From NCBI GenBank assembly GCA_051362555.1, contig CM120641.1:5580001-5644000 (forward strand): 64,000 nucleotides of DNA, read 5' to 3'. This DNA is from Lingula anatina (lineage: Eukaryota > Animalia > Brachiopoda). Both the position numbers and the translations under genes were made by a program. Shown here piece by piece: positions 41,301 through 47,300 of this stretch. Under the pieces are notes generated by a model, which did no database searches, had not been told where the DNA came from, and saw only the letters and a program-made list of their open reading frames with translations. How positions within the stretch are numbered: position 1 is the first letter of the stretch; each line of letters starts with the position of its first letter.

Positions 41301-44300
41301 GTTCAGAAACCACTGGATGTCAGTCACAACATATTGTTCAGGTGTGTCTTTCAGAAAAACTACTTTGCCCTAAAAAAATAAAAAAGAAGGGGAAACAAAA
41401 TATATTTATAACTACAATTTAAGAGTGTAATACTATAATTTAAGAGTGTATTACAGAAAAAACAAATTCAAAAATCTGACATAAACTTATTTTAAACTAG
41501 TTTGTAATGAGAGTGATTTTTCTGTTAACCATATACATGTACATCCATCCATCCATCTACTGATTGCTACCATTTACTCAGTATAAACAGATATCATACC
41601 TGGTAGTATTCTAATAAAATACACTTCAATTCACTACTTGACAAGAGTTTATTTGCACTGGATCTCATTTGCCAAAATATCAGTTAAGTTTTCTCATTTA
41701 AATGGTTACTTACCATTCTGTCAAGCCTGCTGAGTGCCTGAGCATAAGCTGCCGGATTAGCACCAAATGGTTTCTCCTTCAACTCTGACACCAGTTTGTC
41801 CAGTGAGCATATTCTGTGGTTTGGGAGGGCCTTTGAAATATCCATAAATGGTCCAGAGAACTCTAAACTTTGCTCAAAATTCATTCCAACAGCATTTGAG
41901 CATAATGCTGATAGTCTTGACAGCAAAAATGCTGCACCCTGAAACAGAGTGACATTAACAAATACTTTAAAATGACATAACCATATGCATGTAAGGGGTG
42001 GTGTCAGCAACCATTAATTTTATGTATAAAAGTTTTAAAATCGAACAGAATAAAGAGATCATCTTAAACTTCTTTTATCAAATTTTATCAAGTTTTCCAT
42101 TTTTGACCCCATGATTACTACACAATTTAAATAAAAAAATAAAGTTTAGTTTGACACATGGCTATATAGTTTATTACAAAAGAAGATATGAAGGATAAAT
42201 AAGGTACTATCAGATGGTCCCAAGCCTAAATCAAAGTCTATTAAATTAATTACAGAAAGAAAAGGATAGTTAACACAATAGATATCTGTGTGTGTGTGTG
42301 TGTGTGTGTGTGTGTGTGTGTGCGTGCATGTGTGGGTGCATGCATGCATGTGTGTGTGTGTGTGTGTGTGTGCGTGTGTGTGTGTGAACGAATGCACACA
42401 TTCCTCTATGCTACAGTACACCTCCTGTCTTATTTAATTTTCAGGTGTTTGTACACGTAATTGTGTGTGCTGTAGTATGGTAATGAGCACATCCATAACA
42501 GGTGTTAAAATGAGTTTAAAGTGCAATACCTGTCCATATTCTATGATGTTCGACACATTGGATTCTTTAGATGTTGCGTATTTTATCTTCCCATAGGCAT
42601 ATACAGCATGCACCCACACATGAAAAGCTACACCTGCATTTGATACTACAGCAATCTGGAAAACAAAAGCAATCAAATATTTTTTACACAAACTACTAAA
42701 AGAACCAATAACTTTTATTTTCTATTTCCTTTATTCTTTTAGATAAGAGTAAATGATTCAAATAATGAGAAAGCATCTCAGTGGTTTTTATTCAAACAAT
42801 TTGCATTTTAGTGTTCTCTTTTATTCAACTAAAATTTCCAAGGAGAACCAAATGCTGTCTAATAAAAATAATATTTGGATTTCACAATATCAAGAAAATT
42901 TTTGATAAATTAACCAAACTCCTACCTTTGATTCAGTGAATCTTTCATCATTGATATACGCCTCAATTTCTGCCATTTGCTCTTCTGTAACAGTGTCCTA
43001 AAATAAAATATTTTCACAAAATGAGGTGCATTATTCAAATATATATTTTTTAAAAACACTGGAGTCTTGGGAATACATACATTAAATTATATTGAAATGC
43101 ATCACAACTGCTTTCTTATAATGTGGATATTTAAATTATCCAACCTGGTATTATCATAAACAAAGTTGCCAAAGTTTTGAGAAAAAAATGTACGTCAACA
43201 TCTAAAACCTTACCAGTTCATAAGAATGCATATCCCTCAGGAAGGAAAAACTTGAGATAAGTTTCTTTGCTGTTGGCCACCATTTACTAGCATCACTGCT
43301 ATCTTCTACTGTCTTGGGCTACCAAAAGCAATGAAAATGTGTTAATATGAGAGAGAGAGAGAGAGAGAGAGAGAGAGAGAGAGAGAGAGAGAGAGAGAGA
43401 GAGAGAGAGAGAGAGAGAGAGAGAGAGAGAGAGAGAGAGAGAGAGAGAGAGAGAGAGAGAGAGTCAATTCTCTCTTGCTTGCTGTTAATACTAATCTTAT
43501 AATAAATATATAATAAAAAATTCATATTTGAAAATTTAGTACTTAAAAGTGAAAAAATATCTATCCATTAAAGAATATCATCAAATGTGTCATCGATAAG
43601 GGGAAAAAAAATCTAAATTTCTCCCCTTTTTTACTCTAGTCTTCATCACTTACAACCAACATGACAGACATGCATTTATGCAAAAGAACCTACTTACTCT
43701 CTGATTTAAAAGAATACACAATGCCCTTGTGCATTCAAGTACGGCAACTGGTGGTTTAGAATAAGACTTTAGCTAAAAGATAGAAAAGTATCTATAAATC
43801 ATTTCATTAAGAATAAACTCTTATAATGCTTTTAGAACAAGTTGATCCACTTACTAACTGATCCATGGATTAAATATGGCCGACCCACTTAAAAACAATG
43901 CCTTAATGGGCTCCCCACTTCAACATGTGCCATCCTAGCAATTAAACCTCAGAGCCGAAATTTAAATCATCTAATTCATAGGCTCCTGCAGGCCATGTGG
44001 TAAGTGGGGAGGCCTCAAGGAGATTAGCAGCATCACTTTCAAAGGGGTTGAAAATATTTGTTCCGCAACCAGTTAGTTTGAGGATCATCTCTTCTGAATG
44101 CAGCCTGGGTAATACAATACAATGAAAATAAAATAAATGTTATACCATGAAAAATGCATGTCACTTCTATACAACGACTGTAAATAACTTAAATGAGAAT
44201 CCTTATGAAAATCTGACTGCAACTTTAACGCACCCTCAAACAACAGAATCAATAACATTTTGACAAGTATCTTTAAAGTGCAACCTGGTGTGAATGCAAT

Positions 44301-47300
44301 TGTACTTTACCTCAGATATATCAGACTTGGCTAAACTCTGAAGCTTATCCATTGCTCTATTCTGTAACAGATACAATTAAAAAAATAAATAGTTATTATT
44401 TATTGGGTTTATGTTTACTGCTCCTTACTAGCTGGTCCTGATATAAGTGAAGTAACAACATTCAGAATAGCAAGAATATGCACATGTTAGCTATCTGGAT
44501 ATGTGTAATAGGCACACAGAATAAATGATGTTTTAGTTCTCCAAATGCATGTCATAAATATATAAAGAATATGAAGAATATGTAGATTAAGCATAAAATT
44601 ATACTGTACAGTCAGCAACCTTACACTTTAGTTTCTTTTAATCAATAAAGTATATTACAGTCATTCTTTGCTAGTGGTGCACTGCGGGGGGACCATAACA
44701 AGAATGTTATTTAAATTTAGATAGCCGACCAAATTCTCATGACATCGTTGTGTATGTTTCAATAACAAATCAAAGAAGCTGCATGAGCAAGGAGGATATT
44801 GTTATAAAAGCAAAAGAAGAGAAAAAGCAGAAAATATATCGAAATTACCCTCAAAATGGCGTCTTTTTTTGTGGAATTTCGACCCTACCTCTATTTAGGA
44901 ACAGTTTGTTTAGGGTTTGAATGAATTACTGAAGCAGGGAATACACCTACTGCAAGAAGATATAATAAACAGAATGTGCAAATGGTTATTTAAATAAAAA
45001 TTTATTTGAAGTCACTGAAAAATGATCACAAAATTAGCTTAACTTACGATACATGCGGTGTCCCACCCCGATGAAAATTTCATCTAATCCTATCTTTCCG
45101 TATTAAAACTGTTCAATCGTCCAAAGTAGTATTTCGGTTAGTTTGTGTCACGAAATCCATGATAATATCAGTTTTCTTAAGAATTTCACATTTATTGCTC
45201 AGCAAGGTCGATATTTCTTCACCGCGTCCCAATATTACGTTCGCAAAGCTGAAACTTCAGAGATCGATTCTTATCAGACGACTTTAAAATGCCGCGTGAA
45301 AATTATACATCGATAGCGATCTTCTTCCATACTCACTAACTGATGACGTCTACACACGAATGGCTTCTTTTACACACTAAAAAATCCAGCTCAAACTGGC
45401 GGGTGGTCCATTCTGATAACGTCACGCAATGACGCTGTCGAGATAGGATGCAGGGCACAGGTGTAATTCCCTCGATTTAACCGTCACAGGATTGTTTATT
45501 GGGATCTTCTTTGTATGAAGGTGAGAAATAATGAGTTTCGTTTCATTTTTCTTCAATTGTTTCAACATATTTGTGTACCGATTGATTTTTACCATTCTAT
45601 AAGTAGGGTGACTTCGTCTGAACTTTCGTTTTGCGTCTGTTTCACATGGGGGACTAAAGGTCATATTGAACATGGTGACGCGGTGATACCGTATTCATGT
45701 TCTCTTGTTCTCGAAAACTCAATCATCGAAATTGAATTACTTTTTTTTAGTTTTGTCTTAAATTAAGCTGCTACACTGTATTCCGTGCGTTTAAAATTTA
45801 ACCGTCTGTAAAAACAGCAATAATGGATTACTAGCAACACTTAGGCGTTACGCAATGAAGCACCGAAAATGGGTGAAGAAAATGTGTCTCAGTAATGCGT
45901 GTTTGCCACTCATAATGCACTGTACTTTGCTTGAATAAGCAATAAACTATTTGTGATCTTAGGTTATCCATTGTTCGTTATCAGAGTTAACAGATTCTTT
46001 GTGTGATTTTTTTTCAGAATCCCAAGGGTGGATGCCTTAGTGAGCACAGAACAGATATCACCATTGGTCTACATATGTCAGGAAGAATGTTATAATTATG
46101 AACTTTGTGTTACACTGAACTTCATTTTGTTAAATTTTGTATTTAACTGAACTTTATTGTGTTAAAATAATAATAAAAAAATAATAGTTCTGATAAAAAA
46201 CTACAATCTGGAACATTCTTTAGATGAACTTTGTTCAGTGTGTGTCCCATATGACAGAGTTACAGTAAATAAAATATGTGCATTATTCCTCTGTGTTTGT
46301 CAATTCCATTTTAAAAGCATGTGAAAGTGGTGTGCCCCTCATGAATGAAGTGTGTATGGATAATAGCAAAAATATTGTTATTATTTACATGATTATAAAA
46401 AGTTTTTGTACCCGCGTCAATAACGTAACCGTGACCCACATATTCACCATTTTTATTAATTATGAAATGTGGATTAAATTCTTCAAAACCAGTTTTGAAG
46501 CATTGAGACAACACCCCCTTATGATTTAAACTAAAACTGAAAACATTCCATTAGACTTTCATTAGTTTGTGCAAAATATATTACCCAGGGTAACGCGTCT
46601 TGGATTTGGTGGGTATAGCTGTTCAACTCTCCTGTGTGCCCTAAAAAGGGCAGCTGCTGTTTCCCTTTTTATGAAATGATAAACTGTGATGGTGTAGCTA
46701 TCACATCGCAAAATTACAGTTTCCCAGAGAAAGTTTGAAATTTTCGGTCAAATTCAACATTTTGTAACCACTAGCAAAGAATGACAGATTAAACATTGCC
46801 TCCACTTTCTGAAATTTTCTAATAATAAAGGCATCAGAGGGAAATCAACTAGAAATTGACTTTCAATTTAGATTTGTTGGATTAAACCAAACTTATTTAT
46901 CTTTATCCCAACAGGAATACCCACCCAGTGATTTGTAAGAAACTCATTTAGTTCTTTTTCCTTGCTTGTAGCCTGGCCTTCCTCAATCACATTGCTTTGT
47001 AGACCATATACTTGCATCTACAAATAAAGAGGTGAAAATTACATTTATTAAAATCCAAGGCAAAATGTTGGCAAAGGCAGTGTAATTAATTGTTTTTTCT
47101 GAGAGATTACAAGAGAAACAATGAAATGCATAATTCCAGCATTGCACTTTGATTGTTGTACTGTTGTACCTATATAGGGATGTTACAAATATTAAGTTTT
47201 AAAATTTGCAGTGTTGAGTTAAATTCCATGGAACTTTTCTGGTTAATTCTTGAGACATTAAAATGCATACTAAGTTTTTTATCCATCTGGGATTAAACTT

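Follow-up and report, generated by a model that had tools for sequence, protein, structure and literature searches.

What is a piece of dynein doing inside a Roco protein? The question is raised by a 64,000-nucleotide stretch of the Lingula anatina genome (assembly GCA_051362555.1, contig CM120641.1, positions 5,580,001 to 5,644,000; hereafter the window), in which a reading made from the sequence alone (the sequence-only reading) had placed a dynein microtubule-binding domain (MTBD), without a motor, in a Roco protein of LRR-ROC-COR-TIR type. We found that the MTBD does belong to the same protein as these domains. The sequence-only reading was right about the fusion and missed where the graft sits: the protein has a further ROC-COR unit, which is degenerate, and the MTBD is inserted in its G5 loop.

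The region is animal DNA rich in introns, and the gene lies on the minus strand. When long proteins related to the ROC-COR-TIR core were searched for, Lingula anatina LOC106176900 (P0094; RefSeq, 3044 aa) came up, and the window gene matches it. Because exact 8-mers of the window, running from 51142 to 20332, cover 2984 of the 3044 residues, the window carries an allele of LOC106176900. The layout of the protein is LRR, degenerate ROC, degenerate COR, Cys-rich segment, middle region, LRR, ROC, COR, TIR and TIR. The gene, the insert and the sequence leading into it are as follows (window coordinates).

20332..51142, minus strand: whole gene, LOC106176900 allele, double Roco (8-mer walk and tblastn of P0094; nine splice joints in RNA reads)
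46925..47017, minus strand: linker and start of a CC1-like helix before the MTBD (P0094 residues 418-448; model helix 4-24)
46585..46640, minus strand: 'DALPW' exon of the sequence-only reading, unsupported as part of the gene (not in P0094; only +1.2 bits)
44311..44361, minus strand: MTBD exon 1 (CC1 end, helix H1)
43698..43772, minus strand: MTBD exon 2 (H1 end, PP motif, H2)
43214..43318, minus strand: MTBD exon 3, with H3, H4 and a short flap-like loop that pairs with the DHC2 flap in the alignment
42926..42997, minus strand: MTBD exon 4 (H5)
42530..42655, minus strand: MTBD exon 5, carrying H6 and the CC2 stub and leading back into the G5 loop of the degenerate ROC

All five MTBD exons have AG/GT ends and are in phase 0, and the reading frame continues without a stop into exon 41938-41714. 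They correspond to residues 449-591 of P0094, with a single difference between the window and RefSeq (L477I). Six MTBD exons had been proposed, of which these five hold. The sixth (46640-46585, 'DALPW') is missing from the RefSeq model, which links 46925 straight to 44361 in phase 0, and the proposed junction 46585/44361 is unsupported. We regard this exon as unsupported: its inclusion would depend on a weak phase-1 donor at 46921 and raises the dynein profile score by just 1.2 bits, although its DALP resembles a dynein CC1 motif. Six reads connect 44851 with 46709 at a repeat of 6 bases, with no splice signals and with the DALPW segment removed; a deletion allele, a repeat or antisense transcription may account for them. 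Reads antisense to the gene also occur in the 44400-46890 intron in runs X1 and X4.

Sequence searches and predicted structure both identified the insert as a dynein MTBD, as had been claimed. The Pfam MT model (PF12777) matched P0094 at residues 450-568 with 33.8 bits (E 2.5e-8), above the curated cut-off of 24, and a Pfam search of the MTBD exons taken singly gave zero matches. Against a profile built from 25 dynein MTBDs, the spliced window peptide reached 103 bits and the best of 500 shuffles 7.2, a control that is partly circular because the 25 dyneins were selected with a Roco-MTBD profile. Among PDB sequences, the Lingula MTBD matched Chlamydomonas DHC2 (E 2.1e-18), DNAH6 (3.2e-14) and DNAH1 (3.1e-13); 64 sequences were found at E<=0.1, and 60 of the 60 listed were dynein-sized or dynein-named. 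Outer-arm chains gave much weaker matches than inner-arm dyneins, with the gamma chain at E 1e-7. On these sequence scores, the Lingula MTBD is closest to the single-headed inner-arm dyneins DHC2, DNAH6 and DNAH1.

A model of the Lingula MTBD built from five non-dynein rows had a pLDDT (predicted local distance difference test) of 88, with three of five models above 86. The predicted structure is a six-helix fold between antiparallel CC1 and CC2, whose stubs are helices 4-24 and 123-148, and it matched dynein MTBDs closely (3ERR: TM (template modelling) score 0.82, root-mean-square deviation (rmsd) 1.8 Å; 8I3J: Z 19.3, rmsd 2.8, 144 aligned). A flap like that of axonemal dyneins had also been proposed. 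The Lingula loop PKTVEDSSDASK does align to the flap of Chlamydomonas DHC2, four residues shorter, but the loop is missing from the MTBDs of Owenia, Capitella and Mytilus. The absence of a motor was confirmed, since P0094 has no Pfam match to a dynein AAA domain and no long stalk. With tblastn, three full dyneins gave nothing in the window at E<=0.01 and there is therefore no other dynein sequence nearby, as the sequence-only reading had stated. The MTBD model also matched 9fqr_Xl 1335-1495, 9ya2_L 1207-1457 and 9e5c_2e 136-420 (Z 8.8-10.9, 10-13% identity), which come from sperm, Toxoplasma and trypanosome microtubule structures and have residue numbers unlike those of a dynein MTBD. They could be MTBD-like domains, free of a motor, that have already been observed on microtubules, or the match could reflect a helical arrangement that is widespread among proteins.

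Pfam gave no Roc or COR match in the N-terminal third of P0094. When the insert was taken out, hhalign aligned this N-terminal unit to the C-terminal ROC-COR of the protein with a probability of 98% (E 2.3e-13). A model of the first 960 residues of the Lineus orthologue (mean pLDDT 66) had LRRK1, the C. tepidum Roco and LRRK2 as its best matches (E 2e-8 to 2e-5). The N-terminal Roco unit is present in 80 of the 83 family members of at least 2600 aa. In Lingula the P-loop, G3 and G4 motifs of its ROC are replaced; a P-loop-like motif remains at this position in Trichoplax P0119 and the Owenia paralogue P0109. The MTBD occupies the last loop of the degenerate ROC, G5, which connects beta6 to alpha5. 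Four carriers have a G5 loop of 179-187 aa, two others that are incomplete or misaligned have 121-129 aa, and nine of nine non-carriers have 10-24 aa. A second variable site, mid-protein, holds MBT, PLAT or C2 in other family members.

The C-terminal unit is readily recognised (Pfam Roc E 2.1e-22, COR-A 1e-31, COR-B 3.4e-30) and its ROC has the G1, G3 and G4 motifs; a P-loop occurs once in 142 of 154 family rows. The catalytic Glu of TIR NADases lies in helix alpha-C; Glu stands at this putative position in 142 of 145 aligned rows in TIR2 and in 2 of 145 in TIR1. TIR2 is predicted to be a NAD-cleaving enzyme. In seven RNA runs carrying the same species label, reads spanned nine of the gene's GT-AG joints, some 5' and others 3' of the insert. 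The other parts of the gene are listed here.

49495..51142, minus strand: N-terminal LRR block, exons 51142-50951, 50502-50284 and 49690-49495 (similar family N-termini; LRR solenoid in the Lineus model)
47389..48958, minus strand: degenerate N-terminal ROC, beta1-beta6 (hhalign to the C-terminal ROC-COR; joints in reads)
47873/47497 and 47389/47017, minus strand: read-backed joints 5' of the insert
38204..41938, minus strand: last helix of the degenerate ROC and degenerate COR-A/COR-B, exons 41938-41714 to 38354-38204 (joints 41714/41369, 41169/40811 and 38902/38354 in reads)
37562..37764, minus strand: Cys-rich segment common to other family members (tblastn of P0012 and P0023; joint 38204/37764)
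29943..37414, minus strand: middle region, the site of MBT, PLAT or C2 in other members, with no match in a Pfam search in Lingula (joints 37308/36936, 35647/35298 and 35201/35029)
41714/41369, 41169/40811, 38902/38354, 38204/37764, 37308/36936, 35647/35298 and 35201/35029, minus strand: read-backed joints 3' of the insert
27764..29499, minus strand: second LRR block (Pfam LRR)
26242..27436, minus strand: C-terminal ROC with intact P-loop, G3 and G4 (Pfam Roc; motifs read)
23470..25916, minus strand: COR-A, COR-B and two TIR (TIR2 with putative catalytic Glu E2586; TIR1 with Leu)

How widely is the insertion shared? An initial homologue search, restricted to 813-2320 aa, showed MT in 0 of 39 proteins. 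Pfam MT exceeded its cut-off in five family members, and a profile made from these five found a sixth, Macrostomum P0134 (E 4.6e-13; the next best among 159 proteins was 1.0). Orthologues in Owenia, Capitella, Lineus and Macrostomum have the domain at the same site as Lingula. Altogether, carriers make up 8 of 156 family rows (Lingula, Owenia, Capitella, Lineus, three records of Macrostomum, and Mytilus). When a tree was built from the C-terminal ROC-COR, the genera other than Mytilus fell into one mollusc-free clade of eight rows (support 99-100), of which the remaining three rows are N-terminally short models. As judged from this tree and the common site, the MTBD has been kept in one orthologous Roco since brachiopods, annelids, nemerteans and flatworms diverged. 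In the public Capitella model (P0103) the MTBD lacks H6, and the break coincides with the two boundaries of Lingula exon 42655-42530, which suggests a missed exon and intron positions common to both.

Mytilus is a separate case, its MTBD lying in the G5 loop of another paralogue. Mytilus P0045 falls within a molluscan MBT-bearing clade, the other members of which have a short G5 loop, and joining it to the five-genus carrier clade was rejected by an approximately unbiased (AU) test (p-AU 2.6e-8). Its MTBD was found in three Mytilus species (six of the eight cluster members examined carry it and the other two are fragments). This MTBD is DNAH10-like (88-90 bits, versus 54.5 for the next match) and groups inside the DNAH10-type dyneins (100/97; P0270 labelled). 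Trees with the Roco MTBDs as a single clade were rejected at p-AU 0.018 and, in a second test, at 0.0015, values weakened by long branches and by omitted rows (Lineus in both tests; Macrostomum and five dyneins also in the second). The second test split a partial Capitella row from Lingula and Owenia as well, so its result is not specific to Mytilus. Because single-origin trees were rejected, the MTBD was probably captured twice into the same loop, the second time in Mytilus from a different dynein. A less simple alternative is an old insertion that mussels later overwrote and other molluscs lost.

When every row was included, a mixture-model tree of the MTBD had little resolution and put the long branch of Lineus beside the DNAH10 group; monophyly of the four non-mussel MTBDs had support of 56/89 and was neither shown nor rejected. 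The donor of the Lingula-type MTBD, which is about 33% identical to the nearest dynein, can be narrowed no further than 'single-headed inner arm' because the dynein set is made up mostly of DNAH6-like and DNAH10-like rows. In the same family, Dimorphilus gyrociliatus P0126 and P0130 have an N-terminal MIP-T3 (IFT54) CH-like domain (P0126: 25.5 bits, cut-off 23.4), a possible third gain of a microtubule-binding module.

MTBDs without a motor also occur outside Roco proteins. Among the 150 best matches of an MTBD profile (P0160-P0309), a ranking that favours repeats, 111 have 2-6 MTBD copies and no dynein flanks. The partners of these motor-free MTBDs are C2, WD40, F-box, EF-hand, TPR, ankyrin and NACHT, and the proteins include ones from Cyanophora and Fabomonas. 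From such matches, motor-free MTBDs are judged to be common in protists. These proteins resemble the Lingula Roco in using the domain without a motor; they differ in that they are not Rocos and usually have 2-6 terminal or tandem copies, whereas the Roco has one copy in a G-domain loop. Some of the multi-MTBD proteins have NLR-like parts (NACHT, TPR or ankyrin). The ESM Atlas also listed clustered MT proteins 156-180 aa in length, most of those with a known source being molluscan; with every score below 0.9, they are leads only.

What, then, might the domain do in the Roco? We think it fairly probable that the MTBD is a weak, passive anchor, which would hold the double Roco on microtubules or ciliary axonemes and so place a GTPase-gated TIR enzyme there. 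The occurrence of the MTBD in worms of three other phyla, together with the likely second acquisition in mussels, makes it likely that the Roco, a predicted enzyme of immune or stress signalling, is anchored on microtubules. The N-terminal Roco unit, having no nucleotide binding, would serve as a scaffold whose freed G5 loop could tolerate an insert with adjacent ends. With neither stalk nor AAA ring the MTBD would not step and would bind with low affinity; because of this low affinity, avidity would come from Roco dimers or oligomers. The intact C-terminal ROC-COR would gate TIR2, and TIR signalling would thereby be sited on the microtubule lattice, comparable to the way LRRK2 gets there via its own ROC.

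We examined the residues that could contact tubulin. In seven Roco MTBD rows, which represent 5-6 lineages, 7 of 127 columns are invariant, and three of these are charged (K460, E465 and K508, on H1/H3). By motif position we take these to stand at K3299, E3390 and R3337, respectively. Mouse K3299 and R3337 are named as tubulin contacts (PMC6629372), as is Dictyostelium E3390, which is also a proposed dynein switch residue (PMC4298687).

Several observations weigh against such an anchor. PMC4298687 also names two basic tubulin contacts on H6 (Dictyostelium R3469/K3472), which are V552/N555 in Lingula; K or R is present at 552 in 17 of 25 dyneins. The Lingula MTBD is also acidic, with a net charge of -4, and with the H6 contacts lost binding may be very weak or absent. 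The charges at K460, E465 and K508 are near-invariant in dyneins too and could serve the fold or another partner. Most family members have no MTBD, so it is dispensable for the family. In the Lineus model, pLDDT was below 50 in the MTBD half and the linkers. The immune role of TIR-Roco proteins is only a proposal (PMC9334734). Finally, expression of the gene was low (read depth 0-4), and among the joints listed no junction read led onto any MTBD exon, including the junctions 44311/43772 and 42530/41938 named by the sequence-only reading, nor was a loose end at 41938 among the ends listed; the reads were aligned over 43470-52780 and 34600-42280, which take in two of the five MTBD exons. Because no such joint was seen, the fusion rests on the RefSeq model, phase agreement and homologues.

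Rather than a passive anchor, the domain could be an active sensor of microtubules. Lattice binding would shift H1/CC1, and the shift, passed through the degenerate ROC-COR, would switch the C-terminal GTPase-TIR upon damage or remodelling of microtubules or cilia. The CC1 and CC2 stubs are kept and joined to the loop of a G domain, insertion into this loop probably happened twice, and the invariant E465 has the position of the switch residue proposed in PMC4298687, all of which would suit a sensor. However, the linkers are poorly conserved and modelled with low confidence, the nucleotide motifs of this ROC are gone, and Lingula has lost the H6 contacts by which CC2 is fixed. We consider a sensor unlikely.

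Plant NLRs carry integrated decoy domains. The Roco likewise has a foreign host domain within an LRR/NTPase/TIR protein, and its MTBD might mimic host dynein and bait a pathogen protein, whose binding would activate the TIR. The family exchanges accessory domains (MBT, PLAT, C2 and SPRY) and ends in TIR, MTBDs are found in protist NACHT/TPR/ankyrin proteins too, and the loss of H6 charge suits a bait that no longer binds tubulin. Unlike the plant decoys, however, the Roco insertion is ancient and conserved across phyla, with the domain retained in four of them in one orthologous group. At about 33% identity to the nearest dynein it would be a poor mimic, most of the motor-free MTBD proteins found have no immune domain, and we know of no effector aimed at the dynein MTBD. 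These points make a decoy slightly less credible again than a sensor, and on the sequence data a tether appears to fit better.

The domain could also be a module for a partner other than tubulin, for instance an LRR block of the same protein or an LRR protein that associates with dynein, in the way that LC1 sits on the outer-arm gamma MTBD. An MTBD-LRR complex exists (PDB 6L4P), the Roco has LRR blocks and the H6 tubulin contacts are lost. By contrast, the Lingula MTBD is nearer to inner-arm dyneins (E 2e-18 to 1e-13) than to the gamma chain (1e-7), and the charges on H1/H3 are invariant, which makes this explanation improbable and places it below the decoy. A gene-model chimera with exons of another transcript, or an inert passenger carried without function, would account for the missing MTBD-junction reads, the low expression and the Capitella model without H6, but is very improbable given the same loop in independent annotations of six genera, five exons that are all open in phase 0, the six of eight Mytilus cluster members from three species that carry the domain (the other two being fragments), and a Capitella break at Lingula exon boundaries, as expected of an exon skipped in the model.

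A broader proposal than the anchor is that spiralian double-Roco TIR proteins are cytoskeleton-guarding receptors, in which the tip of an axonemal dynein, captured at least twice in the same loop of a dead GTPase, would read the state of microtubules or cilia and gate a TIR NADase in an immune or stress pathway. This is possible, although we regard it as doubtful. If true, an animal pathway of immunity or stress would contain a sensor derived from dynein.

Compared with the MTBD of dynein heavy chains (the central part of PF12777; 3ERR, 8I3J, 6RZA and 2RR7), the Roco MTBD has the same sequence motifs, six-helix fold, CC1/CC2 stubs and H1/H3 charges, and in Lingula a flap-like loop. It differs from them in having no long stalk or AAA+ ring, in the loss of the H6 basic residues in Lingula, and in ends that are tied into a ROC loop. 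The TIR-bearing animal Rocos share the LRR-ROC-COR-TIR core. MBT or EF-hand domains accompany it in Aplysia (PMC9334734) and Trichoplax (PMC4104024); the MBT-bearing Aplysia protein, LOC101848126, is P0047 in the same family. Unlike the Lingula protein, the Rocos in the main texts of these two papers are given no dynein domain and no second degenerate ROC-COR, and the word 'dynein' is missing from these texts and from that of a review (PMC6337361). LRRK2 is also a Roco that reaches microtubules via a ROC, and the N-terminal unit of the Lingula family is predicted to fold like LRRK1, LRRK2 and the C. tepidum Roco. The difference is that LRRK2 binds through basic residues in a ROC that is its own and active (PMC9758056) and has a kinase, whereas the Lingula Roco has a borrowed domain in an inactive ROC and a TIR effector.

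The sequence-only reading knew of no described Roco architecture like this. In agreement, our literature search found no report of a Roco-MTBD fusion, a double Roco or motor-free MTBDs, although domain tables in subscription papers or supplements could list the architecture. It is visible in public Pfam-type annotation and yet appears undescribed. The fusion shows the dynein MTBD acting as a movable module in animals, and the double-Roco layout, with a dead ROC-COR ahead of a live one, was unrecognised. The protein would be an independent case, beside LRRK2, of a Roco aimed at microtubules. Natural stalk-less MTBDs, which are small and by prediction soluble, offer a way to study what determines affinity when there is no motor. 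Two of the carriers, Macrostomum and Capitella, are kept as laboratory animals.

Other features of the window were noted. Upstream of the Roco gene is a katanin con80-domain gene (57436-53400, minus strand), presumably KATNBL1-like, and downstream is IFT140 (8743-324, minus strand); that genes for microtubules or cilia lie on both sides is probably due to chance. A single-exon UQCC2/CBP6 gene is at 58434-58817 (plus strand; Pfam E 2.7e-14), and an unannotated open reading frame of 305 codons is at 61770-60856 (minus strand). An intronic element at 39750-40455 is multi-copy and highly transcribed; it contains a broken P-loop fragment that is RecQ/DEAD-helicase-like. A 159-161 bp satellite forms three arrays (5895-6281, 14682-15826 and 33941-34568), and dispersed repeats lie near 16344-18566 and 31691-33676.

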